A stretch of 64,000 nt of DNA, from positions 1 through 64,000 of the IMG/VR virus record IMGVR_UViG_3300037235_000042; one strand, written 5' to 3'. Below are positions 5,482 to 37,489 of the stretch, one piece after another. The position numbers and the translations under genes are program-made. A model generated the notes under the pieces. It did not search any database. It saw nothing but the letters and a program-made list of their open reading frames with translations, and had not been told where the DNA came from. The stretch comes from a virus. The stretch's first letter is position 1, and each line of letters opens with the position of its first letter.

Positions 5482-5544
5482 GCGTCGAGGTGATCGTGGA
5501 CGGTATTGTTTTGTTATATAGAACTACTTACTAGGAGGACAGTC

Positions 5545-25245: not shown

Positions 25246-25478
25246 ATGATCGGATTCTCTTCCCCTTCCCGGAAGACCTTGTCGCGGAACCTACATTCCC
25301 CAATAACCAAATCCCTCCCGCACGGACAGCTCCCCTTCTGCTTCCGGTACTGCTCCATCAACCGTTCGTTCTTCGCCGTCCACCCAGCCGGGCTGTGCAG
25401 AAAAGTTTCCTGGCCAAATCTCCTTTTCGTCTCGCGAATCTTCTTGGGCGGAGTGAACCTGACGCGATGAGCCCTCAC
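25209..25478 (-). CDS. small basic Cys-containing protein
   Basis: CPC..CSLC; upstream of the fibre gene. Confidence 0.4.
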   Translation of the reverse strand: MRAHRVRFTPPKKIRETKRRFGQETFLHSPAGWTAKNERLMEQYRKQKGSCPCGRDLVIGECRFRDKVFREGEENPIICSLCVKAQRSS

Positions 25479-25662
25479 GAGTGGAAGTTTAGCGAATGGA
25501 ACAGATGGAAGACAGGAGGAATGAAAAATTATGTTGACTTCTTGGTCAGGAATATGACAGGATACAAAACGTCACCGACCAGTAGACCGTACGAAGCGGC
25601 GAGGGGAGGGGAGGTTTTCCAGCCGTCACCCTGGAAGACCTCCCCCGGCGAGTTCAAGTTAA

Positions 25663-25761
25663 ATGATCAATTTTACGAAATCCTCGACTTCCGTTCTATC
25701 AAGCTTAAGTTCAAGCTTGCGACTCAGTCCGTTGTCCTCGCGACTGAGTTATTTATCCTAA
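25663..25761 (+). CDS. leader peptide A (32 aa, Ser/Leu/Tyr-rich) before the Leu/Ser/Tyr tRNA array
   Basis: MINFTKSSTSVLSSLSSSLRLSPLSSRLSYLS*: 13 Ser, 7 Leu, 1 Tyr; ends 9 nt before tRNA-Leu. Confidence 0.75.
   Translation: MINFTKSSTSVLSSLSSSLRLSPLSSRLSYLS
25721..25756 (+). terminator. terminator-like hairpin inside leader A
   Basis: GACTCAGTC / GACTGAGTT stem followed by ATTTAT (weak U tract). Confidence 0.5.
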
Positions 25762-25770
25762 GCACAATTT

Positions 25771-25855
25771 AGGCCCGTGGGCTAATAGGGAATGGCAGAC
25801 CTTTCAGGCTCAAAATCTGAGACCCTTGAGAGTTCAAGTCTCTCCGGGCCTACCA
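25771..25855 (+). tRNA. tRNA-Leu(CAA), short variable arm, enlarged D region
   Basis: AGGCCCG/CGGGCCT-A-CCA; TCAGG CT CAA AA TCTGA; GAGAG TTCAAGT CTCTC. Confidence 0.8.
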
Positions 25856-25861
25856 AGTTTA

Positions 25862-25877
25862 GATCTTTGACAATTTA
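25862..25877 (+). promoter_or_regulatory. rrn boxA-like antitermination element
   Basis: GATCTTTGACAATTTA; shares TCTTTGACAATTTA with the - strand copy near 29774-29790. Confidence 0.6.
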
Positions 25878-25880
25878 AAC

Positions 25881-25971
25881 GGAGAGATGGGTGAACGGGA
25901 AAACCGCCTGTTTGCTAAACAGGAGCTACCCGAAAGGGGGCACGCGAGGTCAGCACTCGCTCTCTCCGCCA
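25881..25971 (+). tRNA. tRNA-Ser(GCT)
   Basis: GGAGAGA/TCTCTCC-G-CCA; CCTGT TT GCT AA ACAGG; long variable arm. Confidence 0.88.
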
Positions 25972-25972
25972 C

Positions 25973-26067
25973 GGTGGGATGGACGAGATGCTAAAGTCAC
26001 CAGTCTTGAAAACTGGCGTGTCCGTCGAAAGGCGGCACCGGGGGTTGAATTCCCTCTCCCATCGCCA
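25973..26067 (+). tRNA. tRNA-Ser(TGA)
   Basis: GGTGGGA/TCCCATC-G-CCA; CCAGT CT TGA AA ACTGG; long variable arm. Confidence 0.9.
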
Positions 26068-26095
26068 AGTTTAAAAATGGTATACTTCCGCCATT

Positions 26096-26584
26096 ATGCC
26101 CATGGCTACACTTGAACTGCAGAGAGCCTATATGGCGGAGTGGTACTTGAGGAAGATCAAGCCCCGTCGCGAGAAATGGATAAAGGAAAATGGTCCTTGT
26201 CGTTGCTGTGGGTCATGGAAGAATTTGGAGGTTGATCACAAAGATCCATCCCAAAAAGTTCATCATCGTGTATGGTCATGGTCTGAATTACGAAGACAGG
26301 AAGAATTAAAAAAGTGTCAGGTTCTTTGTCACGACTGTCATCTTAGAAAGACTGTAGTAGATTTACAAGAGATGGATATCAATGCAGATAAACGCAGAAT
26401 CTGTCCTCCCGGAACGGCTTGGTGCTATCGAGGTAAACATTTCGTAGAAGTCCGGTGGTTCAGCAGTGATGCTGCCAAACACGATGGTTTACAGGACGAA
26501 TGTAGAATATGTCGAAGTAAACGAAGAAGTCCAAATGGTAAGCTCGGGCGTGTTGAGATGTTGGGAATCTCAAGCTGGCCGTAA
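26096..26584 (+). CDS. HNH endonuclease inserted in the tRNA array
   Basis: CRCCGS..NLEVDHKDP..K...ELKKCQVLCHDCH. Confidence 0.88.
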   Translation: MPMATLELQRAYMAEWYLRKIKPRREKWIKENGPCRCCGSWKNLEVDHKDPSQKVHHRVWSWSELRRQEELKKCQVLCHDCHLRKTVVDLQEMDINADKRRICPPGTAWCYRGKHFVEVRWFSSDAAKHDGLQDECRICRSKRRSPNGKLGRVEMLGISSWP

Positions 26585-26634
26585 CCCAGTGACGCTTTGT
26601 CGTCTCGGTCGTTCGATTCGATCCACGCCCACCA
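26546..26634 (+). tRNA. tRNA-Tyr(GTA)
   Basis: GGGCGTG/CACGCCC-A-CCA; GCTGG CC GTA AC CCAGT; variable arm; TTCGATT. Confidence 0.85.
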
Positions 26635-26639
26635 AAAAT

Positions 26640-26716
26640 GCCATCCTGCCGCAACTGGAAGACGGACGTGGTTGAGGTCCACGGTTATGTGAGTTCGAGT
26701 CTCACGGATGGCACCA
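26640..26716 (+). tRNA. tRNA-Leu(GAG), short variable arm
   Basis: GCCATCC/GGATGGC-A-CCA; CGTGG TT GAG GT CCACG. Confidence 0.85.
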
Positions 26717-26726
26717 TTTTTTCAGT

Positions 26727-26803
26727 GCCGGAGTATGCAAATAGGAAAAGCAGCTGAGCTTAGACCTCAGTGTTTGGAGGTTCGATTCCTCTCTCCGGTA
26801 CCA
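26727..26803 (+). tRNA. tRNA-Leu(TAG), short variable arm
   Basis: GCCGGAG/CTCCGGT-A-CCA; CTGAG CT TAG AC CTCAG. Confidence 0.85.
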
Positions 26804-26889
26804 ATTTTCTTGAAAATGATCCTAACTGAACATCTTCCTCCTGTTGAAAACCTGCATCATACCTAGGTCCAACAGGAGGCTTTGCTAAA

Positions 26890-27141
26890 ATGTCAACCTT
26901 GAACGCAATTGCTCTACTGGCGTATCGCGTGCCTGACACGTCGACCGGGAATATATTGCACTTCGCTGTCGGGTTCATCGTCATGGTGTGCGTGCTGGCG
27001 ATTGTGATTATTCTGGTCAAGTGGCTGCTCAGTCTTGGCGGGGTCACAATTCCCCAACCCTTGTTGATCTGTTTGGGGATTCTGATTTTTATCGTCTGTA
27101 TGCTGGCGTTGCTTAGCTGGTCGGGGTATTACAGGTTCTGA
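26890..27141 (+). CDS. small two-TM membrane protein
   Basis: AGGAGG RBS; two long hydrophobic helices. Confidence 0.7.
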   Translation: MSTLNAIALLAYRVPDTSTGNILHFAVGFIVMVCVLAIVIILVKWLLSLGGVTIPQPLLICLGILIFIVCMLALLSWSGYYRF

Positions 27142-27167
27142 GAGCTGAAGCTGAGAACTGAGATGAG

Positions 27168-27197
27168 AAATGGCCCTCGATCTATTGAGGACCATTT
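27168..27197. terminator. hairpin between convergent transcription units, possibly bidirectional terminator
   Basis: AAATGG-C-CCTCGA TCTA TTGAGG-A-CCATTT. Confidence 0.5.
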
Positions 27198-27202
27198 CAA
27201 TC

Positions 27203-27278
27203 TGGTAGCGGGAAGAGGATTTGCACCTCTGTCTCGACCTTATGAGGGTCGCGTATCGTCCTACGCTACTATCCCGCA
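27203..27278 (-). tRNA. tRNA-Met(CAT), initiator-like acceptor stem
   Basis: TGCGGGA/TCCCGCT-A-CCA with 1:72 mismatch; CGACC CT CAT AA GGTCG. Confidence 0.8.
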
Positions 27279-27285
27279 ACACTTG

Positions 27286-27588
27286 TTAAGCCGCGTCCAG
27301 CTTCTTGTTCAACTTCGCCAGTTCAGCGTTGATCTCGGCCTTGCGTTCAACCGTAGTCTTCAAGCTGTCCTTGCGAGCCAGCAGTTCCTTCCGACGCGCT
27401 TCCAGCCGGTCGTGGTTCTTGGCCAGGATCTGACGATCCAAGCTCTTGCTCTGGGCCTCGATCCACTCAGGCAGTTCCACATCCTGTTCGATGTACTCAG
27501 TTACGAGTCCACGAGCGAATGCACGTAGAGAGACCATTTCATCAATGGACGCTCTGTTGTGGTCGAAATTCTTTAGCAACTCCAGCAC
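27286..27588 (-). CDS. coiled-coil hypothetical protein co-transcribed with the TROVE gene
   Basis: AAGGAG RBS, GTG start 16 nt after the TROVE stop. Confidence 0.7.
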   Translation of the reverse strand: MLELLKNFDHNRASIDEMVSLRAFARGLVTEYIEQDVELPEWIEAQSKSLDRQILAKNHDRLEARRKELLARKDSLKTTVERKAEINAELAKLNKKLDAA

Positions 27589-27604
27589 GGGTCAGTTCTC
27601 CTTT

Positions 27605-29119
27605 CTAGGCAACTACGGCCTCTTCGACTGTTTCCACCTTGGTTTTGAACACGTCGTTGAGGGTCAGCAAAGGAAATTCCATAATTTCCTCTAGCAACCC
27701 ATATCGTTGAACTCTCATGGTGGAGACGATATTTGGAAGAGAGTAAAAGTCGACTCCCCCTCTTAAATCGAACTCCTGCAAGTCGATCTCCGCTCGTTTC
27801 ATCGACTGGGCTAGGTCGATGTCGCCTATTCCATGCATCGATGGAGCCAGACGATAGAGATAAACAGGAACTTCTTTACCCAGAGTTGTGCAGTACCGCT
27901 TATACGTGTCTGCGAACCTCGGGGCAGTGTTCTCCTGTGCGTCTGACACGATAGCGATCCCGTCGGCCTCGACGCTTCGGTCGATTGCGTATTGAACGCC
28001 ACAACCAATCGAAGTTCCTGCTCCGTCGGCTGTAATCCATTTCGTGTCTGACTTGATCTCGTCATAGCTCTTTCCAGTAACGTCGAACACGCGTGAAGCA
28101 ACAGAGTCGAAGAAGACCAAAGTGATTTTGTTCTTCACCATCTTCCCTAGTGTTCCTGCTACCAGTCGAGCCGTTTCGATAGCGTTCGACATGGAAGGAG
28201 ATTTGTCTGCCAAGATCAGCCAGTTTCCCTCAATCCCTGCAGCACGTTTGAGTTGTTTCTCCTGCAAGTTCTGGAGCTTCCCCTTCAACCCTTCATCCGA
28301 GATCTGTTCCGCTGCTCGGGTAGTCTTCAGCACGTTCTTGGTCGACTTCGACGCCTTTTCAAGCGCTTCCTCGAACACGCCCCGCAGCGCCGGGTTCGTC
28401 TTGACCCCCAGGCGTTCGAGCATTTTCACATTCGTTACCAACTGCGAAGGCGTCATCTTTTTGATCAACGCCAGCACGAGGTCAGGATCGTTGATCTTCT
28501 TCCCCAACGCGCCCTGAGCGGCCATGAACGGGATGTTGTGCTCAAGGATCGCTCCAGCGGCTTCAAGCGCTGACATATTGATCAACTGAGCAACGATCTC
28601 TCTTTTCGAACCTTCCGGGTGGGCCATCTTCCCGTTGTGTTGGTAGAACAGGATATCCCCTACCCGGTCGGAACGCTTGCAGTGTCCCAAAGCGTAGAGA
28701 TTGGCAAAGGTCTTCCGGTCCTGCGTGACCATTGAGTCCCATTTCTGTGGAACGGCTTCGATCTTCTTCAGATAAGCTTCGATCAACCGGCGCAGGGTAC
28801 GCATTCTTCCGGCTGGACGAAGTTCCAGCGCGAACCGGTAGGCTCGCTCCAGTTCCCGAGGGCCGAGCAGCGCGATATGAGCTAGGGAATTGTCGATGAA
28901 TTCGTCTGGGTAGTTCTTGGCCTTCAGCGACACGACTGGTAACGCCACCTTGGCGTCACGGATCTGGCCTTTCAGCCGGTCCCAAGCTACGAGATGTGCA
29001 AAGAATTCAGGTTCCTGTTCAGCCGCCTTTAGGCCGATGGGAACGTATTCCTGAAGCTTCCCGTGAGGAGACTTCGACAATTCACTTAAAATAGTGTTCT
29101 TGGTAAGTCCTGTTTCCAT
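27605..29119 (-). CDS. TROVE-like helical + vWA domain protein (Ro60/Rsr-like RNA-binding protein)
   Basis: 504 aa, helical N-terminus (EQEPEFFAHL..W...GQIRD), C-terminal vWA with MIDAS LILADKSPSM, GTSIG, IVSDAQEN; YrlA-type RNA upstream. Confidence 0.75.
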   Translation of the reverse strand: METGLTKNTILSELSKSPHGKLQEYVPIGLKAAEQEPEFFAHLVAWDRLKGQIRDAKVALPVVSLKAKNYPDEFIDNSLAHIALLGPRELERAYRFALELRPAGRMRTLRRLIEAYLKKIEAVPQKWDSMVTQDRKTFANLYALGHCKRSDRVGDILFYQHNGKMAHPEGSKREIVAQLINMSALEAAGAILEHNIPFMAAQGALGKKINDPDLVLALIKKMTPSQLVTNVKMLERLGVKTNPALRGVFEEALEKASKSTKNVLKTTRAAEQISDEGLKGKLQNLQEKQLKRAAGIEGNWLILADKSPSMSNAIETARLVAGTLGKMVKNKITLVFFDSVASRVFDVTGKSYDEIKSDTKWITADGAGTSIGCGVQYAIDRSVEADGIAIVSDAQENTAPRFADTYKRYCTTLGKEVPVYLYRLAPSMHGIGDIDLAQSMKRAEIDLQEFDLRGGVDFYSLPNIVSTMRVQRYGLLEEIMEFPLLTLNDVFKTKVETVEEAVVA

Positions 29120-29131
29120 TCTTAACCTCTT

Positions 29132-29188
29132 CCCCGAACGTAAGATTGGCCCGACTAATTCTCTTAATCGGGCCTGTGTACGTCGAAA
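29132..29188 (-). promoter_or_regulatory. 5'-leader hairpin of the TROVE gene carrying the Y-module, overlapping the RBS
   Basis: ACGTA-CACA-GGCCCGATT...AGTCGGGCC-AATCT-TACGT, then GGGGAAGAGG and ATG 29119. Confidence 0.65.
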
Positions 29189-29194
29189 CTTTCA

Positions 29195-29267
29195 TCACTG
29201 GTGGGGTATTGAGTGCCCACATCTCCGATAGCTTGCGCTACCCGGCGTAATCCTTATACGACAGTGA
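29195..29267 (-). ncRNA. tRNA-like element with the anticodon arm replaced by a GCAA-capped hairpin, no CCA
   Basis: TCACTG/CAGTGA stem, D-like GTA..TAC, CCGGGTAGC GCAA GCTATCGG, GTGGG..CCCAC T-like arm. Confidence 0.55.
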
Positions 29268-29274
29268 AGATTTA

Positions 29275-29399
29275 CGGCGTTGGATCGTTTCAGCTATTTT
29301 ACGCGCTCTACCGCTGAGCTACGGTTCTTGCGAACCGGTTGGATTCGAACCAACGACCTCGGTCGCCAAGTGACATGTAAGCTGGAACCGTAAACGCCG
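29275..29399 (-). ncRNA. YrlA-type Y RNA (circularly permuted tRNA mimic)
   Basis: Ends pair (CGGCGTT/AACGCCG); order T arm (GTTGG TTCGAAT CCAAC), acceptor stem closed by GCAA (CGGTTC/GAACCG), D arm (GCTC AGCGGTA GAGC). Confidence 0.85.
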
Positions 29400-29404
29400 A
29401 TCTT

Positions 29405-29529
29405 TGGTGGGGAGTGTTGGATTCGAACCAACATGAGCAGTCTTGAAGGACTGTTGCATGAATCCAGTTTCAGTATGCGATGTGACTCGCAGGATCGCTA
29501 CTGGCGCTTTTCCATTTTGCTAACTCCCC
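29405..29529 (-). ncRNA. CCA-ended tRNA/Y-RNA hybrid (Y-module in the anticodon position)
   Basis: GGGGAGT/ACTCCCC-A-CCA, D arm, T arm GTTGG TTCGAAT CCAAC; insert CCAGTAGC GATCC TGCGA..TCGCA TACT GAAACTGG. Confidence 0.7.
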
Positions 29530-29534
29530 AAACT

Positions 29535-29631
29535 TGGTGGAGGGCTCCGGGTATTAGCCGGAGAAGCATGTAATCTCGCAATGTATGCGCTTTAAAGGCG
29601 CAGGATCGAACGTGATTTTGCAGAGCCCCCC
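29535..29631 (-). ncRNA. CCA-ended D-armless tRNA/Y-RNA hybrid
   Basis: GGGGGGC/GCCCTCC-A-CCA, TCCGG CTAATAC CCGGA; insert GATCC TGCGC CTTTAAA GCGCA TACA...TACATG. Confidence 0.65.
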
Positions 29632-29639
29632 GTAAAATC

Positions 29640-29767
29640 CCCATCGCAGGATCGCTTGAGCTAAGGTCTTGCGACCTCAAGGTTGGAATCGAACCAACAA
29701 CTTTCTGATTACTAGTCAGATGCTCTACCAATTGAGCTACGTGTAAGCCCGAGCCGTGTGCGATAGG
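29640..29767 (-). ncRNA. Y-RNA/tRNA-Thr(AGT) hybrid (Y-module replaces the acceptor stem)
   Basis: CCTATCGCA CACG GCTCGGGCT...AGCTCAAGC GATCC TGCGATGGG enclosing D arm, TCTGA CT AGT AA TCAGA, T arm and a GCAA hairpin; no CCA. Confidence 0.75.
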
Positions 29768-29773
29768 AATATT

Positions 29774-29790
29774 AAATTGTCAAAGAACAA
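29774..29790 (-). promoter_or_regulatory. rrn boxA-like antitermination element
   Basis: TTGTTCTTTGACAATTT between the promoter and the first Y-hybrid. Confidence 0.65.
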
Positions 29791-29803
29791 TGATGACTAC
29801 CAA

Positions 29804-29832
29804 TATGTAGCATCCTTGACAGAGGTTGTCAA
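29804..29832 (-). promoter_or_regulatory. sigma70-type promoter of the Y-RNA/TROVE operon within an inverted repeat
   Basis: TTGACA-17-TACATA with TGn extension; CTTGACA gaggt TGTCAAG palindrome. Confidence 0.55.
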
Positions 29833-29850
29833 GATAAAATTACCTAAAAA

Positions 29851-29925
29851 TGGTCGGGGATGCTGATTCTGCCACAGCGACCCCTCGGTCCCAAGCCGAG
29901 TGCTCTGCTTCTGAGCTAATCCCCG
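29851..29925 (-). tRNA. tRNA-Pro(TGG)
   Basis: CGGGGAT/ATCCCCG-A-CCA; CTCGG CT TGG GA CCGAG; atypical T loop. Confidence 0.85.
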
Positions 29926-29930
29926 AAATT

Positions 29931-30005
29931 TGGTGCGGACTGGAGCGCTCGCATCTCCGTCTGAAGGGCTTCAACCTTCCGCTACTCTGTCTCAGCTAAG
30001 TCCGC
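29931..30005 (-). tRNA. tRNA-Phe(GAA)
   Basis: GCGGACT/AGTCCGC-A-CCA; GAAGG TT GAA GC CCTTC. Confidence 0.82.
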
Positions 30006-30011
30006 AAAAGT

Positions 30012-30087
30012 TGGTGGACCCTGTCGGCTTCGCTCCGACCGCCTCCGGTTTGCAGGACCGGCGCTCTCCTGAATGAGCTAAGAGCCC
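30012..30087 (-). tRNA. tRNA-Ala(TGC)
   Basis: GGGCTCT/AGGGTCC-A-CCA with G3:U70; CCGGT CC TGC AA ACCGG. Confidence 0.88.
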
Positions 30088-30095
30088 ACATAAAA

Positions 30096-30170
30096 TGGGG
30101 TGGCTGACGGACTCTGCCTCCGTATGATCGGGGCCACAACCCGACGCCTTTCTAGTTCGGCCACAGCCAC
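30096..30170 (-). tRNA. tRNA-His(GTG)
   Basis: GTGGCTG/CAGCCAC-C-CCA; TCGGG TT GTG GC CCCGA. Confidence 0.86.
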
Positions 30171-30173
30171 AAT

Positions 30174-30247
30174 TGGAGCAGGCGTTCGGTGTTTGACCGA
30201 AGTCTTACGGGTACAAGCCGTAGGCTCTATCGTTGAGCTACACCTGC
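30174..30247 (-). tRNA. tRNA-Thr(TGT)
   Basis: GCAGGTG/CGCCTGC-T-CCA; TACGG CT TGT AC CCGTA. Confidence 0.85.
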
Positions 30248-30254
30248 AAACTTA

Positions 30255-30328
30255 TGGAGCCGAGGCCGGTAGTCGAAACCGGATCGTATGCTTACCAAGC
30301 ATATGCTCTGCCGTTGAGCTACCAAGGC
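30255..30328 (-). tRNA. tRNA-Thr(GGT)
   Basis: GCCTTGG/CCTCGGC-T-CCA; TATGC TT GGT AA GCATA. Confidence 0.86.
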
Positions 30329-30330
30329 TC

Positions 30331-30405
30331 TGGAGCTAGCGTTCCGACGTGCGCGGAATTCTGCTGGTTACGAATCAGCGGCTCTACTATATGAGCTACG
30401 CTAGC
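30331..30405 (-). tRNA. tRNA-Thr(CGT)
   Basis: GCTAGCG/CGCTAGC-T-CCA; GCTGA TT CGT AA CCAGC. Confidence 0.83.
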
Positions 30406-30410
30406 AAAAC

Positions 30411-30487
30411 TGGAGTACTGGGTAGGACTGTAACCTACTAAGAAAGGCTTTGCAGGCCTCCGCTTCGACATCTTCAGCATCCAGTAC
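30411..30487 (-). tRNA. tRNA-Cys(GCA)
   Basis: GTACTGG/CCAGTAC-T-CCA (U73); GAGGC CT GCA AA GCCTT. Confidence 0.85.
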
Positions 30488-30495
30488 ATCAAAAA

Positions 30496-30569
30496 TGGAG
30501 CGAGTGGGGATACTCGAAATCCCATCTCTGGTTTGGAAGACCAGGGCCTTACCTTTAGACGACACTCGC
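30496..30569 (-). tRNA. tRNA-Gly(TCC)
   Basis: GCGAGTG/CACTCGC-T-CCA; CTGGT CT TCC AA ACCAG. Confidence 0.9.
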
Positions 30570-30570
30570 A

Positions 30571-30647
30571 TGGCGAGAACGACAGGATTCGAACCTGCTT
30601 GTCGGTGGTTTGGAATCACCTGCCCTTCCAATCGGGTCATCGTTCTC
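30571..30647 (-). tRNA. tRNA-Trp(CCA)
   Basis: GAGAACG/CGTTCTC-G-CCA; GGTGA TT CCA AA CCACC; TTCGAAT. Confidence 0.87.
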
Positions 30648-30648
30648 A

Positions 30649-30726
30649 TGGCGGGCTAGACGGAACTCGCATCCGCTTTACTCCTCCGTGACGGGGAGGC
30701 GGCTCGACTCCTTCGCCCTCTAGCCC
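30649..30726 (-). tRNA. tRNA-Asp(GTC)
   Basis: GGGCTAG/CTAGCCC-G-CCA; CCTCC CC GTC AC GGAGG. Confidence 0.85.
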
Positions 30727-30727
30727 A

Positions 30728-30803
30728 TGGCAAGCTCCCAGCGATTCGAACGCTGATTGACAGATTCAGAATCTGTAGTCCTAGCCAATTGGACGAGGAG
30801 CCT
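30728..30803 (-). tRNA. tRNA-Gln(CTG)
   Basis: AGGCTCC/GGAGCTT-G-CCA; ACAGA TT CTG AA TCTGT. Confidence 0.9.
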
Positions 30804-30809
30804 AGTTAA

Positions 30810-30882
30810 TGGCACCGGCGCTGGGAATCGAGCCCAGACCGCAAGCTTCAAAGGCTTACTACGGCACCAGCCGCACGCCGGA
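30810..30882 (-). tRNA. tRNA-Gln(TTG)
   Basis: TCCGGCG/CGCCGGT-G-CCA; TAAGC CT TTG AA GCTTG. Confidence 0.82.
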
Positions 30883-31065
30883 TCAAATTTTCAATGAAAT
30901 CGCCCTTATACACCGGGCGCAAACCACCGCCGACTGATCGACGTCTTTTTCCTTCCGCATCCGGTCGACCCGAGCTTCCCGGACCAGCTGACGATGATCA
31001 CCACCGCGTTCGCAGTAATTGATATCGCCGGGCTCGATGGTCGTGTTGAACAGTTTGTGCTTCAT
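30883..31065 (-). CDS. small Cys/His protein inside the tRNA array
   Basis: MKHKLF...CERGGDH...CARC fills the gap between tRNA-Glu and tRNA-Gln. Confidence 0.5.
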   Translation of the reverse strand: MKHKLFNTTIEPGDINYCERGGDHRQLVREARVDRMRKEKDVDQSAVVCARCIRAISLKI

Positions 31066-31075
31066 TCTTGATCTC

Positions 31076-31152
31076 TGGTGCCGCATGTCGGAGTCCCACC
31101 GACTTTATCCTCCTTGAAAGAGAGGCCGCTCCAGTCCTTTGCGCTATGCGGC
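31076..31152 (-). tRNA. tRNA-Glu(TTC)
   Basis: GCCGCAT/ATGCGGC-A-CCA; CCTCT CT TTC AA GGAGG. Confidence 0.82.
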
Positions 31153-31154
31153 AA

Positions 31155-31229
31155 TGGTAGCGGATGACGGTTACGATCCGTCTTTTTTCGGATGAGAACC
31201 GAATGGCCTAGCCAGTAGCCGAATCCGCC
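31155..31229 (-). tRNA. tRNA-Glu(CTC)
   Basis: GGCGGAT/ATCCGCT-A-CCA; TTCGG TT CTC AT CCGAA. Confidence 0.82.
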
Positions 31230-31247
31230 GTTTAACTATCGAACTCT

Positions 31248-31595
31248 TTATCGAACCACCAAAAACGGAATCGTCACCAGCTGTTTCTCCTTGGTGACCA
31301 TGTCCGTCGCCGAGAACACCAGATTAACCTGCTTCCCGGCTGAGGTTGGCCCGGTCGGCGTCCCCGTTACCACAGCAGATCGAGGATCCTCGGCGACCAA
31401 GGCTAGTCCGGCAGGCATCGGGTCGCTGGTTGAATCCAGATCCCAGCAGATCTGATGCAGGGGCTTATCCAAGGTGTGCAGCCCCGTGTACAAGTAAGCG
31501 GTGAATGGACGGTTGATCCTGGAGATCAGCGCCGGAAAGGGTTGGGCTAATCCTGGTATCTCCTGATCGTTCAAATCCGTAGCGATGTCGGGCAT
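31248..31595 (-). CDS. putative Ig (He_PIG-like) domain protein
   Basis: W.L....MPAGLAL......VVTGTPT...F.ATD; AAGGA RBS. Confidence 0.65.
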   Translation of the reverse strand: MPDIATDLNDQEIPGLAQPFPALISRINRPFTAYLYTGLHTLDKPLHQICWDLDSTSDPMPAGLALVAEDPRSAVVTGTPTGPTSAGKQVNLVFSATDMVTKEKQLVTIPFLVVR

Positions 31596-31631
31596 AGAAT
31601 TCCTTTCAAGTTGGATTAAGTAGATCAGATT

Positions 31632-31664
31632 AAAAAAGCCTTCTAGTTTTTAAGTAGAAGGCTT
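31632..31664 (-). terminator. intrinsic terminator (attenuator C)
   Basis: AAGCCTTCTA-9 nt-TAGAAGGCTTTTTT. Confidence 0.85.
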
Positions 31665-31692
31665 GCCGTTTAAACCCGTCAAATCCTTCCAA

Positions 31693-31794
31693 CTACCCAC
31701 AACCTTCGCCCTGAAACCACGCTTGGTGTAGTCCAAACGGAGTCTTGGTCACAGTCGGGGTCGTAGGTTGATCGGAATGGATTGGTGTTCTCAT
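31693..31794 (-). CDS. leader peptide C (33 aa) before the 15-tRNA array
   Basis: MRTPIHSDQPTTPTVTKTPFGLHQAWFQGEGCG*; lies between a promoter and a terminator; contains all 11 amino acids of the downstream array. Confidence 0.8.
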   Translation of the reverse strand: MRTPIHSDQPTTPTVTKTPFGLHQAWFQGEGCG

Positions 31795-31817
31795 GTTCTG
31801 GTAACTCAACAGGAAGA

Positions 31818-31846
31818 ACTCTACTATTCGGACGAAAACTTGTCAA
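31818..31846 (-). promoter_or_regulatory. sigma70-type promoter for leader C/array C
   Basis: TTGACA-17-TAGAGT. Confidence 0.75.
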
Positions 31847-31940
31847 CAGGAAAATTAAGAGAATTCCTTAACCGGGTAAGGTATCGACGGTATTGTTCCT
31901 TCTTCCGGTTCCACGCAAGCTGATAAGCGGAGGAATTCTT

Positions 31941-32120
31941 ATGCCCTGTTCACAGCAGGATCGCTTCTCAGCATCGGCGGATAAACTTCAAGGGGAACTG
32001 GAATCGCTGGATAACCGGTTGCAACAGTTGCAGAATATGGAAGAGATATTGGAGAAGGTGGAAGGATCACCGATACTGACGAGGACGGAGAGAAGGATGG
32101 AGTTTAACCGAGCGGCTTAG
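31941..32120 (+). CDS. small coiled-coil protein
   Basis: GGAGG RBS before ATG 31941. Confidence 0.55.
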   Translation: MPCSQQDRFSASADKLQGELESLDNRLQQLQNMEEILEKVEGSPILTRTERRMEFNRAA

Positions 32121-32125
32121 AAGAC

Positions 32126-32202
32126 TGGTAGGCCAGGTCGGACTCGAACCGACAACCTCTAGATTCGGAATCTAGCGCGATTTCCTTTTTCGCTTCTGGC
32201 CT
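32126..32202 (-). tRNA. tRNA-Arg(CCG)
   Basis: AGGCCAG/CTGGCCT-A-CCA; CTAGA TT CCG AA TCTAG. Confidence 0.88.
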
Positions 32203-32204
32203 AA

Positions 32205-32280
32205 TGGTGACAGCGTCGAGGCTCGAACTCGAAATTGCTTTTTAGGAGAAAGCTGTGATTTCCGTTTTCACCACGCCGTC
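32205..32280 (-). tRNA. tRNA-Arg(CCT)
   Basis: GACGGCG/CGCTGTC-A-CCA; GCTTT CT CCT AA AAAGC. Confidence 0.88.
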
Positions 32281-32286
32281 GAAATA

Positions 32287-32364
32287 TGGTGCGGGATAGA
32301 GGACTCGAACCTCTTGCCTCGGGTTTCGTAGACCCGCGCTCTGATCCTGATGAGCTAATCCCGC
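32287..32364 (-). tRNA. tRNA-Arg(ACG)
   Basis: GCGGGAT/ATCCCGC-A-CCA; CGGGT CT ACG AA ACCCG. Confidence 0.92.
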
Positions 32365-32369
32365 AAACT

Positions 32370-32445
32370 TGGGGGCTGCTGGCCGACTCGAACGGCCATT
32401 CGAACTTTAGAAGAGTTCGTCCTAATCCTGTTGGATGAAGCAGCC
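32370..32445 (-). tRNA. tRNA-Arg(TCT)
   Basis: GGCTGCT/AGCAGCC-C-CCA; GAACT CT TCT AA AGTTC. Confidence 0.86.
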
Positions 32446-32465
32446 ATAGTTAACCTCTGTAAAAG

Positions 32466-32541
32466 TGGTGGAGGTCATGGGATTCGAACCCACATCGGCT
32501 CGCTTAAAAGGCGAGGGTCTTCACCATTAGACGAAACCTCC
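32466..32541 (-). tRNA. tRNA-Lys(TTT)
   Basis: GGAGGTT/GACCTCC-A-CCA; CTCGC CT TTT AA GCGAG. Confidence 0.9.
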
Positions 32542-32549
32542 AAAACTCT

Positions 32550-32628
32550 TGGTGGGTGCGGCTGGGGTCGAACCAGCATGTTCCTGATTAAGAGTCAGGA
32601 GCGCCTTCCATCACTCCGCCACGCACCC
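32550..32628 (-). tRNA. tRNA-Lys(CTT)
   Basis: GGGTGCG/CGCACCC-A-CCA; CCTGA CT CTT AA TCAGG. Confidence 0.9.
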
Positions 32629-32629
32629 A

Positions 32630-32703
32630 TGGTACTCGCAGGTTGAGTCGAACAACCATCTCGTGCTCATCAGACACGGGCCTTACCGTTAGACGATGCG
32701 AGT
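32630..32703 (-). tRNA. tRNA-Ile(GAT)
   Basis: ACTCGCA/TGCGAGT-A-CCA; CGTGT CT GAT GA GCACG. Confidence 0.86.
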
Positions 32704-32775
32704 GAAACTTGCGGGCCGCCGTTACCCCTGACAGGACTTCAACCACTGTCAGGATTGTTGAACTTTGGCCCAGCT

Positions 32776-32850
32776 TGGTGCGCGGTGAGCGATTCGAACG
32801 CCCGACAAGTAGTTCGTAAAACTACGGCTCTACCCCTGAGCTAACCGCGC
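32776..32850 (-). tRNA. tRNA-Val(TAC)
   Basis: GCGCGGT/ACCGCGC-A-CCA; GTAGT TT TAC GA ACTAC. Confidence 0.9.
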
Positions 32851-32856
32851 AAACTT

Positions 32857-32935
32857 TGGTCCGTCCTCTTGGATTTGAACCAAGGCCCTTCGCCTTATGA
32901 GGGCGCTGCTCTAGGCCGGGCTGAGCTAAGGACGG
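32857..32935 (-). tRNA. tRNA-Met/Ile2(CAT), elongator type
   Basis: CCGTCCT/AGGACGG-A-CCA; GCGCC CT CAT AA GGCGA. Confidence 0.86.
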
Positions 32936-32943
32936 ACGGGAGG

Positions 32944-33126
32944 TTATTGCACCCCCAGTTTATACGACGCCTTCTTGTTCTTCCGTTGACGTTTTTTACC
33001 TTTTTTAAACTTGGCCTTCGCGTAACGGACTTGTGGCGGATATTTTTTGAACACTCGTTCACGATGCGCCTTGCGTTCCGCCGCCTTGCGGAGCTTGGTC
33101 GCTAGTTTCTGTCCTGTTGTACGCAT
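32944..33126 (-). CDS. small Lys/Arg-rich protein inside tRNA array B
   Basis: GAGGTG RBS; about 24 of 60 residues are K/R. Confidence 0.55.
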   Translation of the reverse strand: MRTTGQKLATKLRKAAERKAHRERVFKKYPPQVRYAKAKFKKGKKRQRKNKKASYKLGVQ

Positions 33127-33174
33127 TGACGTTCACCTCTTAGTGAATCGTCATGGCGGACCTCCTTTGGAATT

Positions 33175-33251
33175 TGGCGACACCGGGAGGACTCCAACCT
33201 CCACCCTTCCGCTTAACAGGCGGCTGCTCGGCGCATCTCAGCTTCGGTGCC
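33175..33251 (-). tRNA. tRNA-Asn(GTT)
   Basis: GGCACCG/CGGTGTC-G-CCA; GCCGC CT GTT AA GCGGA. Confidence 0.85.
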
Positions 33252-33283
33252 AAAATATTAAAGGTCCCCATCTCTGAGGACCC
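33252..33283 (-). terminator. intrinsic terminator (attenuator B)
   Basis: GGGTCCTCA GAGA TGGGGACCT TTAATATTTT directly before tRNA-Asn. Confidence 0.75.
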
Positions 33284-33318
33284 TTTTTGTCTCCACTCCA
33301 ACAGTGATAAAGAGACAG

Positions 33319-33390
33319 TCAGGTCCCCAAACGCATATTGCGCTTCACTTTAATGACGCGCCTAGCTGAGTTGGGGTTGATCAATCTCAT
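33319..33390 (-). CDS. leader peptide B (23 aa) before the Asn/Met/Val/Ile/Lys/Arg array
   Basis: MRLINPNSARRVIKVKRNMRLGT*; core RRVIKVKRNMR consists only of array amino acids; ends in TGGGGACCT, identical to the terminator 3' arm. Confidence 0.82.
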   Translation of the reverse strand: MRLINPNSARRVIKVKRNMRLGT

Positions 33391-33399
33391 GGTTTGGGT

Positions 33400-33429
33400 A
33401 GGATACGAAATTGGAGTAGGAGATGTCAA
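33400..33429 (-). promoter_or_regulatory. sigma70-type promoter for leader B/array B
   Basis: TTGACA-18-TATCCT, -10 box ending 9 nt before the leader ATG. Confidence 0.7.
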
Positions 33430-33653
33430 GCTAATTTCCTATACGCATACCCGCCGTTTTTCACGAATTCATGGAAATACTGCCCCGACGACAACGCCTG
33501 CGCGAACCCGGTCACCACATCTCCTGCAACCTGTGAGTAAACATAGGTCGAGCCGTTTTTAAACTGGACGTACAGCTCCATCGCGTCTTCGTCATAAGCG
33601 ACCGCTGCTAAATGCCCGGACGGAACGATTTGTATCTCCTTCAACACTCTCAT
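33426..33653 (-). CDS. KTSC-domain protein
   Basis: SG.LAAVAYD.....LYVQFKNGSTYVYSQV.....ALSSGQYFHEFVK. Confidence 0.9.
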   Translation of the reverse strand: MRVLKEIQIVPSGHLAAVAYDEDAMELYVQFKNGSTYVYSQVAGDVVTGFAQALSSGQYFHEFVKNGGYAYRKLA

Positions 33654-33667
33654 ATACTACATCAGAA

Positions 33668-34525
33668 ATGGCGAAACCGGAAAAATCCGTCCAAGAACTC
33701 CTCTCCGCAGGCGGCAACGGTCCCATCACCACACAATCTCTAGCCAAGCTGCTCGAAGTCGGCCTGCCGGAGATCCAGTCCCTGATCGATAATGAATATC
33801 TGCGCGTAATCTTCAACAAGGAATCCTTTCCTGCAACCGTCGTCGCCTGTCCAGGGGATCGCGGGTTGATCTGGCTCCGGCAGATGTTCCGTCCTTTTTA
33901 TCTTCGGCCTATGATCAAGTTGGTTGAAGTACGCGAGATGATCGAACAGTATAGAAAAAAGGAACCCAAACGCTGGGAGATTGACCGATGGGCAGCCGTT
34001 ATGGGAACGCTGGATTTCTACCGGAAGCTATGCTTCGAACACCGGATTCCAATCTACCACGACGAGGAATTCGGGGAGTTACTGACTATTGAAGGCTTCG
34101 GCTGGTTGCTCCTCCGGCTCCGGACGTCTTGGCAGAAACGAGGGAAAAAGGATCAGGCTTCGCTCTTAGCCTATCTGCTTAACACCCTACCGGATCCGCA
34201 ACTGAAGCCTAAGGATCCTCTGGAAGTCCCGCGTTACTCTGCCCAGTTGTCGAAAGAGATAAACCGGATCGCCCGTTTGCCTATTGAACAACGGACGATC
34301 ATGGCGCTGAATCTCTACCAGTGCTGGAAGGATGCACGGACAGTTCAGGAATGCCTGATCAAGTTGAAGGATCTGGAGAGGTATCTGGAAAAGGATAACG
34401 GTGGTCCAGGAAGCGGACATAGACGTAATCAATACGCGTTCAAATGCGGCCCGAGGGTAGCTGAGGTAATGGAATTCGACCGCAGGATCGAGAGGTTGAA
34501 GGATCAGGTTACGACGGTCGAGTAA
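33668..34525 (+). CDS. hypothetical protein, possible N-terminal HTH
   Basis: 285 aa; ITTQSLAKLLEVG..EIQSLI. Confidence 0.65.
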   Translation: MAKPEKSVQELLSAGGNGPITTQSLAKLLEVGLPEIQSLIDNEYLRVIFNKESFPATVVACPGDRGLIWLRQMFRPFYLRPMIKLVEVREMIEQYRKKEPKRWEIDRWAAVMGTLDFYRKLCFEHRIPIYHDEEFGELLTIEGFGWLLLRLRTSWQKRGKKDQASLLAYLLNTLPDPQLKPKDPLEVPRYSAQLSKEINRIARLPIEQRTIMALNLYQCWKDARTVQECLIKLKDLERYLEKDNGGPGSGHRRNQYAFKCGPRVAEVMEFDRRIERLKDQVTTVE

Positions 34526-34530
34526 ACCGA

Positions 34531-34722
34531 TCAGCAATCCGGCTTGTGGACGATTATTAAAGTGTCGACGTTCGGGATTATCTGCGGTCGACAGTCGCAA
34601 TCCCTTCCGATCTTGTGGCCGTGATGAAACTGAACCCCGTCGATCTCAATCCCTTGTACGACGTCGATCTGCACGACTTCTGCTTCACCGTCGTCGGGGA
34701 TTACCAGCCATTGACGTTTCAT
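34531..34722 (-). CDS. small hypothetical protein (H..CDCRP motif)
   Basis: Operon order; HKIGRDCDCRP...IIVH. Confidence 0.6.
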   Translation of the reverse strand: MKRQWLVIPDDGEAEVVQIDVVQGIEIDGVQFHHGHKIGRDCDCRPQIIPNVDTLIIVHKPDC

Positions 34723-34954
34723 CTTCTTGGGAAGAGTCGATCTCTTTCTTGAGTTCGTTGGCCATTTTTAACAAATGATCAGGTTCTTCGGACTCTAGGA
34801 TTGACATAACCTCGTCGCGGGAGAGATCGATCAGGAATCCTCCGTCGATAGGCGAACTCCCGGCGAGGAAGATCGAACAATGATCGTCGTCGATGGGCTT
34901 GACCACGGCTAGGAGATCAGTGTTGATTAGTAATTCGTCGAGCAGGATGAACAT
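34685..34954 (-). CDS. hypothetical protein
   Basis: Start abuts the upstream stop. Confidence 0.6.
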   Translation of the reverse strand: MFILLDELLINTDLLAVVKPIDDDHCSIFLAGSSPIDGGFLIDLSRDEVMSILESEEPDHLLKMANELKKEIDSSQEDETSMAGNPRRR

Positions 34955-37489
34955 TTACCTATTAACCTCTTCTCTGGTTTCCGTCTCTTCTTTCTGATCT
35001 TCCTTAGGCGCTGACTGTCCCGCGACCGCAGCTCCCGCGTAGCGTCCGACTCGACGAGGCTTATCCAATCTACCAGACTTGGCCGGAGTAATCTTAACCC
35101 TTCTAGGCGGTTTCGCTCCACGATACGCTGAGTATTGCGTTAACTGTCGGTCGAGATCCGCGATGGAGTTCTGGATCTGTTGCTGCAGATCCGACGGTAA
35201 CGCAGCATAAGGCGTGATATTCCGTCCTCCTCCAGCCCTGGCCACGTAATCCTGCAACCGCTTCATGGCTTGGTACGCCATCTGTGGATCGGTCGTGTAC
35301 ATCGTCCCTGGACCGACACGGGACACGTCACCACCAGAAGTTTCAGGGATCATTTGCCAGACGGTTTCACGTTTGGTCGGAGAGCCGGTAAAACTACGAT
35401 CAGGCGTGATACTCCCTTTCGGGCCGATTTCAAGCTTTCGCTCCTTGGGTGGAGTGTAGTAATCCTTGTGGAACGCCGGATCACCACCGACGCCGGTTCT
35501 TCCCTTGTGCGAAGACGGCTCGAAAGGTTCATAGCTAGGATTGGGAACTTCCCGCGTCCCCGCGTACTCCATCCGAGTCGACCGTTCATAAGGAGTGATT
35601 AATTCCTGAGGAATTCCGCCGTTGACGCGAAACATGGGCTCCCCCGGAGAGGAAGTAGTCATGTCACGTACTGGAACAGCACTGAAACTGTCTGCTTGGC
35701 CTTTTCCGTAAACTCGATGAATAGGTGCTTGTGAAGACGATGGAAGGGCTTTCTGTTCCACCGGAGCGACTTCTACCTTTTCTCCAGTTGCACCTTCGCC
35801 GAGCTTCCCTACTCCTTGCTTGAACCAGAGGTTGAACTCCCCGGCTGGTTCACGTTCGAATCTTAACGCCCGCTTGGCGACGTGGCGTTCCCACAACGAA
35901 CCGTGTTCCAGATTACCAAGATAACCTTTCGCTACTTCAGCTGCTTGGCTAGGGTCGACATCAGCGAAGTAGGTCGCGTGAATGCCGTCACGGAAGCGGA
36001 TCGCCGCAGCTTCCCTGGCTCCGTATTGTCGAAGGTCGACTCCGCTTATTTCAGATAACTTCGGATACATGAACTGCCGGATCGAGTCAGCGGCGATCTT
36101 CCATGCGTAGATTGTGTCAGCGGACGCACCAATAGTCTTACCAGGGACTCCACTTAGCGCTCCCTTGATCTTCTTGTTCGCGGTTATTTTGATATCGTTC
36201 AACTCGCCGATATTCTTAGCGTCGTCGACACGGTCAGCGAGGTTGTAGAGCGCTCTGGCGAGTTGAGGGTTGGCTGCTTTCTCTTCTTCAGCTGCGGAAT
36301 TCATCAGATCGTCTATGATCTTAGGCTTTATATCCTTGATGGAATCCGCCGCGTATTCCTGCGCGATCTTTCTAAACGGACGGTCAGCAATATCAACCGC
36401 GCCACTTGAAGCTTCTAGCGCCCGTCGTGCACCAGCGCGGATATTGCTCACGAACTTCCCAGTCGGGTTCCCTTGAGCATCAAACGCGGGTTCTACCCGT
36501 TGAAACCACTTCGCACCGCGCCGGACAGGAAACGATCCCGTGAACCGGCCTTTCATACTTTTGGTGGCCGGACTCTCTGAGAAGAAATCCGGATGAACAA
36601 CTCTTTCTTCCAAGGACCGCTGGTCGACGTAGCCGCTTTCCTGCAGCCATTGTTTCAACAAGGGTCGAACCTGTTGAGCGATCCACAAGTTATCATGGAC
36701 TTCACCGTAGATCGGTGTTCGATCAGCTTGGGACTTCCCGATCATTGCGGCGAGACTTTCGTCTTCCTTAACCGCGTGTCGGCCTGTAGCCTCACTGGAT
36801 TCACTCCCGCCGACGACTTTCTTCAACAATTTCCCTGCGCCGATAGTTGCAGCAGGAACGGTAAACATCGACGCAAGGCCACTAGTGTACATCCCTGCAC
36901 CGAAGTCCCTCCAAGCCTGATCAGGATCGCCGCCGAACAAGGCTGAGGTGAAGTTAAGTGATTTCCAAGCTTCCTTTGCTCCACCTTCTTTATTCGCTTC
37001 AGGATGAGATTGGAGATAACGTTGGAATTCTGAATCTGGTCTATCGGTTAATTGCCGGAAGGGGTCGGTCAGTCCCTTGCCGAAGTTCAGCGTAGAATCC
37101 CAGATCTTCTTCCCGGTCATCGGTCGGCCAGTTTCAGGATCGTTCAGAATAGCCATCGGTGCGCCGAGCTGGTCGGCTATTCCTTTACCTAATTCAACGA
37201 TGCCTGACGCTGCCCGGACGGTTCCGGCGTCGGACGTGGGTTCAACCTTTGTCTTCGGCCCAGCAGCAGGACGTTTAGCCTGTGCATAAGCAGCTGGAGC
37301 CAAGCGTTCAATGGTCTCGTCGAATTTCCTGTCTGACAGCTTGCCGAAATCCGGATCATGTTGCGCAAGGAAATCCTTCTGCCCCTTGGGCGTCATGGCA
37401 TGGAAATCCGGATCGTTCAGCACTGATTGGATGACTTGGGAGTTATCCTGGGGGCTGGACGCCTGCGGGTTGTTTTGCTCCGGGGGCAT
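34955..37489 (-). CDS. large internal virion/ejection protein (putative)
   Basis: 844 aa, helical, last of three A/G/Q-rich genes after the tail genes. Confidence 0.6.
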   Translation of the reverse strand: MPPEQNNPQASSPQDNSQVIQSVLNDPDFHAMTPKGQKDFLAQHDPDFGKLSDRKFDETIERLAPAAYAQAKRPAAGPKTKVEPTSDAGTVRAASGIVELGKGIADQLGAPMAILNDPETGRPMTGKKIWDSTLNFGKGLTDPFRQLTDRPDSEFQRYLQSHPEANKEGGAKEAWKSLNFTSALFGGDPDQAWRDFGAGMYTSGLASMFTVPAATIGAGKLLKKVVGGSESSEATGRHAVKEDESLAAMIGKSQADRTPIYGEVHDNLWIAQQVRPLLKQWLQESGYVDQRSLEERVVHPDFFSESPATKSMKGRFTGSFPVRRGAKWFQRVEPAFDAQGNPTGKFVSNIRAGARRALEASSGAVDIADRPFRKIAQEYAADSIKDIKPKIIDDLMNSAAEEEKAANPQLARALYNLADRVDDAKNIGELNDIKITANKKIKGALSGVPGKTIGASADTIYAWKIAADSIRQFMYPKLSEISGVDLRQYGAREAAAIRFRDGIHATYFADVDPSQAAEVAKGYLGNLEHGSLWERHVAKRALRFEREPAGEFNLWFKQGVGKLGEGATGEKVEVAPVEQKALPSSSQAPIHRVYGKGQADSFSAVPVRDMTTSSPGEPMFRVNGGIPQELITPYERSTRMEYAGTREVPNPSYEPFEPSSHKGRTGVGGDPAFHKDYYTPPKERKLEIGPKGSITPDRSFTGSPTKRETVWQMIPETSGGDVSRVGPGTMYTTDPQMAYQAMKRLQDYVARAGGGRNITPYAALPSDLQQQIQNSIADLDRQLTQYSAYRGAKPPRRVKITPAKSGRLDKPRRVGRYAGAAVAGQSAPKEDQKEETETREEVNR

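Follow-up and report, generated by a model that had tools for sequence, protein, structure and literature searches.

What controls the expression of phage tRNA arrays? The function and control of such arrays have been debated for decades, and neither of the current answers, codon compensation and escape from tRNA-cleaving defences, explains how their expression is controlled. The viral genome considered here (IMG/VR record IMGVR_UViG_3300037235_000042) is complete, has a length of 98,271 bp with direct terminal repeats and 52% G+C, and carries about 35 tRNA genes within 25.7-33.3 kb, arranged in three transcription blocks. An initial annotation of the window, by which we mean the first 64 kb of this genome (64,000 nucleotides), had proposed that one of these blocks, array B, lies behind a transcription attenuator whose short leader ORF is written in the codons that the downstream tRNAs read. 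Written in the codons of its own array, a leader peptide would directly sense the supply of tRNA. Here we describe a computational analysis of this putative leader, leader B, and of the regions upstream of the other two arrays.

Three tRNA arrays with disjoint amino-acid sets

tRNA genes were identified using ARAGORN, ARAGORN at a relaxed threshold, Rfam and reading by eye. The three arrays are as follows:

25779-26803, plus strand: Ser/Leu/Tyr array, in the order Leu, Ser, Ser, Tyr, Leu, Leu
33251-32126, minus strand: array B, the regulated unit of the model, with ten tRNAs and one protein gene in the order Asn(GTT), 60-aa gene, Met(CAT), Val(TAC), Ile(GAT), Lys(CTT), Lys(TTT), Arg(TCT), Arg(ACG), Arg(CCT), Arg(CCG)
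31229-29854, minus strand: Glu-to-Pro array of 15 tRNAs, Glu x2, Gln x2, Asp, Trp, Gly, Cys, Thr x3, His, Ala, Phe, Pro

The amino-acid sets of the three arrays are disjoint and their union comprises all 20 amino acids, with array B accounting for six of them (Asn, Met, Val, Ile, Lys and Arg). The plus-strand array consists of exactly the three bacterial tRNA families that possess a long variable arm (type II), namely Leu, Ser and Tyr, so that the sorting of tRNAs follows tRNA class as well as amino acid. An HNH-like ORF (~26100-26545) is inserted between the Ser and Tyr tRNAs of this array.

Array B is bordered upstream by a gene for a KTSC-domain protein (33653-33426, minus strand; Pfam E 9e-17) and downstream by a convergent plus-strand ORF. 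Its first gene, tRNA-Asn(GTT), which starts at 33251 on the minus strand, scores 44.5 bits in Rfam and is detected by ARAGORN only at the relaxed threshold. Between tRNA-Asn and tRNA-Met lies a protein gene with a strong Shine-Dalgarno (SD) sequence (33126-32944, minus strand), which encodes a very basic, Lys/Arg-rich product of 60 aa, 29 of them within the array B set. This protein has no Pfam family match, and a search of a protein collection identified a 92% identical relative on an NCBI contig. The array-matched make-up of protein genes embedded in the arrays was also examined, and was found not to be specific.

Other features of the genome were noted during this analysis. A 504-aa protein with a weak VWA match (27605-29830, minus strand) adjoins several tRNA-like RNAs. 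A match to YrlA, a Y RNA-like family, was found at 29271-29400 (42.5 bits, under the Rfam cut-off of 69), the tRNA model also matches 29408-29529, with a long insert, and 29740-29681 contains a tRNA-like body that lacks an acceptor stem. Together, the VWA-like protein and the tRNA-like RNAs at 27605-29830 look like a phage Ro60/Y-RNA module. Elsewhere, the 1662-aa DNA polymerase ORF (9077-14065) contains a LAGLIDADG homing-endonuclease segment at residues 458-625, which may be an intein or an inserted endonuclease.

A small ORF matched to each array lies just upstream of it

Every ATG-initiated ORF of 20-45 aa (378 ORFs) or 12-50 aa (661 ORFs), in all six frames of the whole genome, was scored by its binomial enrichment in the amino acids carried by the tRNAs of each array. 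For each of the three sets, the top-ranked ORF in the genome was found to lie just upstream of the matching array, on the same strand:

25663-25761, plus strand: Ser/Leu/Tyr-rich leader ORF of 32 codons, the end of which lies 17 nt short of the Leu/Ser/Ser/Tyr/Leu/Leu array; 21 of its 32 residues belong to the array set (p 1.8e-7), rank 1
33390-33319, minus strand: leader ORF B, 23 codons plus TGA, with the ATG at 33390 and the TGA at 33321-33319
31794-31693, minus strand: leader ORF of 33 codons upstream of the Glu-to-Pro array; 26 of 33 residues in its own array set, rank 1

The three-by-three matrix of leaders against arrays is diagonal, whether residues are counted or codons that the array anticodons can read. 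We roughly estimate the joint chance of three first ranks to be far below 1e-5, because only a handful of the 661 ORFs occupy such positions.

Leader ORF B, with its ATG at 33390 as first annotated and a length of 23 codons, lies between a TTGACA/TATCCT site and tRNA-Asn. Sixteen of its 23 residues fall in {N,M,V,I,K,R} (background 0.29, binomial p 7.7e-5), which places it first for the array B set among both the 378 and the 661 ORFs genome-wide. The annotation had drawn attention to a run of eleven consecutive array-matched codons (AGG CGC GTC ATT AAA GTG AAG CGC AAT ATG CGT, encoding RRVIKVKRNMR); this is present inside the ORF at 33363-33331 on the minus strand and is the longest run of set B codons in all six frames of the 98-kb genome. 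The anticodons of array B can read 15 of the 23 codons, as against three for each of the other arrays. Thirteen of the 16 matched codons fall at or before codon 17 and together sample eight of the ten array B tRNAs, with Met sampled only at codons 1 and 19. AGA, ATC and AAC do occur earlier in the ORF, as had been claimed in support of this sampling, but CGG, the codon read by tRNA-Arg(CCG), is absent from it.

A TTG-extended, 36-aa version of ORF B was considered and rejected, since its start would fall inside the -35 hexamer. A search of a 15-billion-protein collection with five start variants of the leader ORFs returned none of them.

As a control, the same ranking script was applied to arrays of Xanthomonas phage BUDD and of the 735-kb uncultured megaphage LR756501, which gave ranks of 2, 16, 30, 80 and 91. 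With control arrays at ranks 2-91, and with the first array of the Tunturiibacter phage Tunturi_5 (see below) reaching only 10 of 299, we rejected the possibility that the enrichment is an artefact of the method. Because it has the top enrichment among 661 small ATG-ORFs, contains the longest matched run, and has matched counterparts at the other arrays, ORF B is not a chance ORF.

Putative promoter, terminator and antiterminator parts of leader B

The sequence elements assigned to leader B, in the order in which they would be transcribed, are as follows:

33400-33429, minus strand: sigma-70-like promoter, with the -35 hexamer TTGACA at 33429-33424, an 18-nt spacer and the -10 hexamer TATCCT at 33405-33400
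33340-33361, minus strand: hairpin inside ORF B, codons 11-17, dG -9.9 kcal/mol
33321-33329, minus strand: putative antiterminator 5' strand, a second exact copy of TGGGGACCT, formed by the final three codons together with the first nucleotide of the stop
33289-33316, minus strand: inner hairpin enclosed by the antiterminator helix
33262-33283, minus strand: terminator stem-loop, with 5' arm GGGTCCTCA (33283-33275), loop GAGA and 3' arm TGGGGACCT (33270-33262)
33252-33261, minus strand: U-rich terminator tail, interrupted by A residues and abutting the 5' end of tRNA-Asn

The promoter that had been proposed, TTGACA-18-TATCCT, is present on the minus strand and scores 10/12. It is one of only two such sites in 25000-36000 and one of six scoring at least 10/12 across the whole genome, two of which sit directly before leader B and the 31794 ORF. 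Sites of this quality are not enriched genome-wide (6 observed, compared with about 7.5 in shuffles), and a pattern scan of 25000-36000 found no further promoter-like site between the leader B terminator and array B. The -35 hexamer shares bases with the stop codon that ends the upstream KTSC gene. From the spacing of the hexamers alone, we infer that transcription starts at about 33395-33393, with the ATG some 3-5 nt further on; this would leave a leader of only 2-4 nt, so that the transcript would be near-leaderless.

No Shine-Dalgarno sequence occurs within the 25 nt before the ATG of ORF B, so the classical criterion for a ribosome-binding site is not met and translation would need a near-leaderless start; an SD-like tetramer precedes about 55% of the long ORFs in this genome. 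A possible leaderless precedent within the same genome is the gene for a 232-aa NUMOD4/HNH_3 homing endonuclease (genome 96648-97346), which lacks an SD and starts 6 nt after a TTGTCA-17-TATATT site, and which likely gives a leaderless mRNA in the same phage. The context around the ATG is common to leader B and the 31794 leader. In transcripts arriving from the KTSC gene, ORF B would be internal and have no SD, and read-through would probably be constitutive.

At the other end of the leader, the annotation had described a hairpin with a U-rich tail just before tRNA-Asn and an exact duplication of its 3' arm. The hairpin is there, whereas termination at this site remains an inference. A/U pairs extend the stem to 11 bp (33285-33260; dG -16.6 kcal/mol), and it was the top-ranked terminator-like site in the 11-kb pattern scan (25000-36000). 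In that scan, terminator-like matches near leader B were no more frequent than in shuffles. Since its U-tract is broken by A residues, the terminator may be weak. The exact 9-nt copy of the 3' arm (33262-33270) likewise proved to be present, at 33321-33329. When the 109-nt leader was subjected to dinucleotide shuffling, an exact copy of the 3' arm appeared in 11 of 20000 shuffles (p ~5e-4), and any 9/9 complement of the 5' arm, with G-U pairs allowed, in 286 of 20000 (1.4%). It is possible, by inference only, that the hairpin at 33340-33361 acts as an RNA polymerase pause hairpin.

The region 33252-33429 had no Rfam match, T-box included, either at the gathering score or at E up to 1, and we rejected the T-box and other known RNA families as identities for leader B.

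The predicted fold of leader B depends on ribosome position

The leader B RNA is predicted to be more stable than its own shuffles (z -4.4). Its minimum free energy fold is the antiterminator, in which 33329-33321 pairs with 33283-33275; the antiterminator helix together with the inner hairpin has a dG of -26.9 kcal/mol, and the terminator hairpin one of -16.6. RNA that ends before the 3' arm already folds as the antiterminator, which would make read-through the default on kinetic grounds. We found no 1:2 protector helix in leader B, where both the free RNA and the RNA lacking the 3' arm fold as the antiterminator. Since the untranslated leader thus defaults to the antiterminator, it is not a superattenuator of the trp type.

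Folding under a ribosome-footprint constraint had been put forward beforehand as a check on the model. We placed an unpaired footprint of 28 nt (A site -15 to +12) at each codon in turn and, for each placement, calculated the partition function of the RNA extending to the 3' edge of the terminator stem. An A site anywhere on codons 19-24 (24 being the stop) hides the upstream copy of the 3' arm, and the terminator is then predicted with P=0.99. For codons 8-17, the 5' arm is mainly paired with the upstream copy (P 0.6-0.98), and for positions up to codon 17 the footprint exposes the whole of that copy; codons 10-17 of the eleven-codon run lie in this zone. Codon 14 departs from the pattern (terminator 0.92), and the probabilities are noisy between neighbouring codons because the terminator and antiterminator are nearly isoenergetic in these calculations.

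The check therefore reproduces the proposed switch, with one restriction. That a ribosome at the stop codon masks the copy and allows termination is borne out by the calculation, as is, for most of codons 8-17, the claim that a stalled ribosome leaves the copy free and allows read-through; this second claim fails at codons 19 (AUG) and 20 (CGU), which lie in the masked zone, so that a stall there should favour termination. By computation, then, the two folds of leader B are mutually exclusive and dependent on the position of the ribosome.

Sister leaders at the other two arrays

The leader upstream of the Glu-to-Pro array includes the following elements in addition to its ORF:

31634-31846, minus strand: 31794 sister element, upstream of the 15-tRNA array, with the promoter TTGACA-17-TAGAGT
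31664-31655 and 31645-31636, minus strand: arms of a strong terminator, followed by a U6 tract

No thermodynamic antiterminator was found in the 31794 leader, for which the terminator is predicted, at equilibrium, with P 0.95 in every ribosome state. A long helix joins the 5' half of its ORF to the stop region, an arrangement that is more trp-like. In the Ser/Leu/Tyr leader, a weak hairpin lies inside the ORF and the geometry differs from that of leader B; the simple attenuator model is a poor fit and does not explain this leader. A perfect 15-bp hairpin without a U-tail is found at 25604-25648, about 15 nt upstream of the Ser/Leu/Tyr leader ORF. In summary, the codon match is uniform across the three leaders, and the RNA switch is clean only in B.

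An apparently comparable element in a cultured phage

In searches for relatives, neither blastn nor tblastn against GenBank phages returned a match. IMG/VR was queried with the KTSC protein, the 285-aa neighbour, the 115-aa array protein and its 80% relative, their alignment, and the helicase; these scans yielded only relatives of 30-45%, none of which had tRNA arrays. Scans of JGI metagenomes and GTDB genomes identified no near relative. Three near relatives of the neighbouring proteins, 80-96% identical, were present in the protein collection.

The Tunturiibacter phage Tunturi_5 carries 43 tRNAs (PMC11924767). This cultured phage (PP885688) encodes a 49-aa protein, gp308, which precedes a 14-tRNA array running from Trp to Val; 30 of its 49 residues match that array, and it ranks first among 274 ORFs. 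The relevant segment is:

PP885688 17832-18096: Tunturi_5 gp308 and its terminator, before the 14-tRNA array

The gp308 ORF is followed by a hairpin with a U-tail. A GAGGG copy close to the ORF's 3' end is able to pair with the 5' arm of this hairpin; in this element the antiterminator appears only in truncated RNA. A second ORF in Tunturi_5 (5430-5594), followed by a terminator at 5620-5637, is rich in the amino acids of the next array over its C-terminal half and ranks 10 of 299. Like leader B, gp308 is a top-matched small ORF followed by a U-tailed hairpin and then by a tRNA array. It differs from leader B in its 49 codons, its SD-like AAGGGA and its annotation as a hypothetical protein, and the two share no sequence similarity. 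Cultured Tunturi_5 thus appears to carry an element comparable to leader B.

A model for the control of array B

Taken together, we consider it probable, though well short of established, that leader B is a ribosome-mediated attenuator that senses tRNA supply and gates array B. This reading rests on sequence and on modelled RNA folds, without expression or conservation data, and the transcription start, the translation of the ORF, real termination and the physiological trigger are all inferred.

According to this model, transcription would start at the TTGACA/TATCCT promoter a few nucleotides before the ATG, and the 23-codon leader would be read as the polymerase nears the hairpin at 33283-33262. 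If decoding is fast, a ribosome at codons 19-23 or at the stop would cover the 9-nt copy (33329-33321), the 5' arm would pair with the true 3' arm, and transcription would stop at 33261-33252, before tRNA-Asn. Were the ribosome instead to lag or stall on codons 2-17 (Arg AGA/AGG/CGC, Ile, Asn, Val and Lys AAA/AAG), which would be read by eight of the ten array B tRNAs, the free copy would pair first with the 5' arm, no terminator would form, and the polymerase would read through into tRNA-Asn, the 60-aa gene and the remaining nine tRNAs. A leader that is not translated at all would also default to read-through. With read-through predicted unless the leader is translated quickly, array B would be shut off only when its own class of codons is being translated successfully, and the circuit would act as negative feedback on tRNA supply. 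The trigger that we infer is either the demand imposed by codon usage or the cleavage of host tRNAs by defence nucleases. Published cases of anticodon-nuclease defences have targets such as Lys, Arg, Asn and fMet tRNAs.

A broader proposal, which we offer tentatively and with appreciable doubt, is that all three operons, split by amino acid, are each gated by their leader, so that the phage senses which class of host tRNA is failing and switches on the matching set alone. If this is true, such gating would constitute a class-specific sensor of, and counter-measure to, tRNA-targeting immunity, or a sensor of codon demand, and would explain why the arrays are sorted by amino acid. At 180 nt and with parts of the sigma-70 type, the leader B element is directly testable, and could serve as a compact biosensor for the depletion of specific tRNAs.

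Several other explanations have to be weighed against an attenuator at leader B. The strongest of them, which we regard as unlikely but worth keeping in view, accepts that the matched ORF senses decoding and places its output elsewhere: in Rho access, in RNase E or RNase P processing, in RNA stability, or in a switch of reversed polarity in which stalling leads to termination. Such an output would accommodate a codon match that is strong at all three arrays alongside a clean, thermodynamically competitive antiterminator found only in B, and it draws further support from the hairpin that lies inside the Ser/Leu/Tyr ORF and from the interrupted U-tract of B itself. It is harder to reconcile with the copy of the 3' arm in B, which falls exactly on the stop codon, with folds that are mutually exclusive in the way an attenuator needs, or with the U-tailed hairpins that follow two of the leaders here as well as gp308 of Tunturi_5.

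A more deflationary account, in which the parts are ordinary and the ORF arose by chance, seems to us improbable. The hairpin would then end the KTSC transcript or mark a processing site, the promoter, ORF and repeat would be coincidental, and the tRNAs would be made by read-through or from unrecognised promoters. The absence of an SD, the lack of conservation and expression data, and the fact that promoter-like and terminator-like matches in the region are no commoner than in shuffles all leave room for such an account; yet chance would have to put the matched ORF first among 661 at all three arrays and supply the longest matched run of the genome within ORF B and an exact arm copy at p ~5e-4, when control phages analysed with the same script gave mostly unremarkable ranks. 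Harder still to credit is the idea that the product of ORF B is a short basic peptide that acts in its own right, for example in RNA or ribosome binding, and whose match to the array merely reflects its richness in Lys and Arg. The neighbouring 60-aa gene, with its similar Lys/Arg-rich composition and its close relative, is a real conserved protein and lends this idea some plausibility. Against it, the matched run includes Val, Ile, Asn and Met codons as well and draws on several Arg codons and both Lys codons, each of the other two leaders matches its own array without being basic, and ORF B has never been called by gene callers in the 15-billion-protein collection.

Comparison with known systems

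A full-text search of the literature yielded no relevant account of leader-peptide or attenuation control of tRNA arrays or operons, and we found no published case in which tRNA genes are controlled in the style of the trp operon. The nearest published system is the trn operon of Anabaena sp. PCC 7120, a long tRNA array that is inducible (PMC8421152, PMC10272220). As in our model for array B, an extra tRNA array is silent by default and comes on when translation is impaired; unlike leader B, its control involves direct repeats over the -10 box and the repressor TrcR (PMC8421152, PMC10272220), and the words leader, attenuation and terminator are absent from both papers. Phage tRNAs have also been described as a counter-defence against tRNA-cleaving immunity (PMC10264068), including the case of PARIS and the T5 tRNA-Lys (PMC11464382). 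This work gives a reason for phages to carry Lys, Arg, Asn and Met tRNAs and to want them once those of the host run low, but treats the tRNAs themselves rather than any demand-sensing control of their transcription (PMC10264068, PMC11464382); the former paper mentions no leader or attenuator and does not discuss the regulation of phage tRNAs.

T-box riboswitches resemble leader B in that the status of tRNA is sensed via a choice between terminator and antiterminator in a 5' leader. The T-box binds uncharged tRNA directly through its specifier codon and does not require translation. Leader B differs in that its sensing would depend on translation of the leader rather than on direct binding of tRNA, and in its lack of an Rfam match.

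The closest mechanistic parallel is with the attenuators of amino-acid operons, which share with leader B a short ORF in the 5' leader rich in the codons to be monitored, an intrinsic terminator followed by the regulated genes, and an alternative helix that is masked once the ribosome reaches the stop. The enterobacterial examples include multivalent attenuators, such as those of ilvGMEDA (Ile/Val/Leu) and thr (Thr/Ile), as well as trpL, hisL, pheL and leuL. The distance from stop codon to terminator in leader B, about 56 nt, is similar to that of trpL. Unlike the enterobacterial attenuators, leader B is phage-encoded, lacks an SD, is putatively near-leaderless, and samples six amino acids together with several isoacceptors. 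Without a 1:2 protector helix, its untranslated RNA is predicted to read through, whereas the trp type superattenuates. The targets differ as well, being biosynthetic enzymes in the enterobacterial systems and tRNAs in leader B; if the model is correct, attenuation, classically a control of amino-acid biosynthesis, would here reach to the tRNAs themselves.
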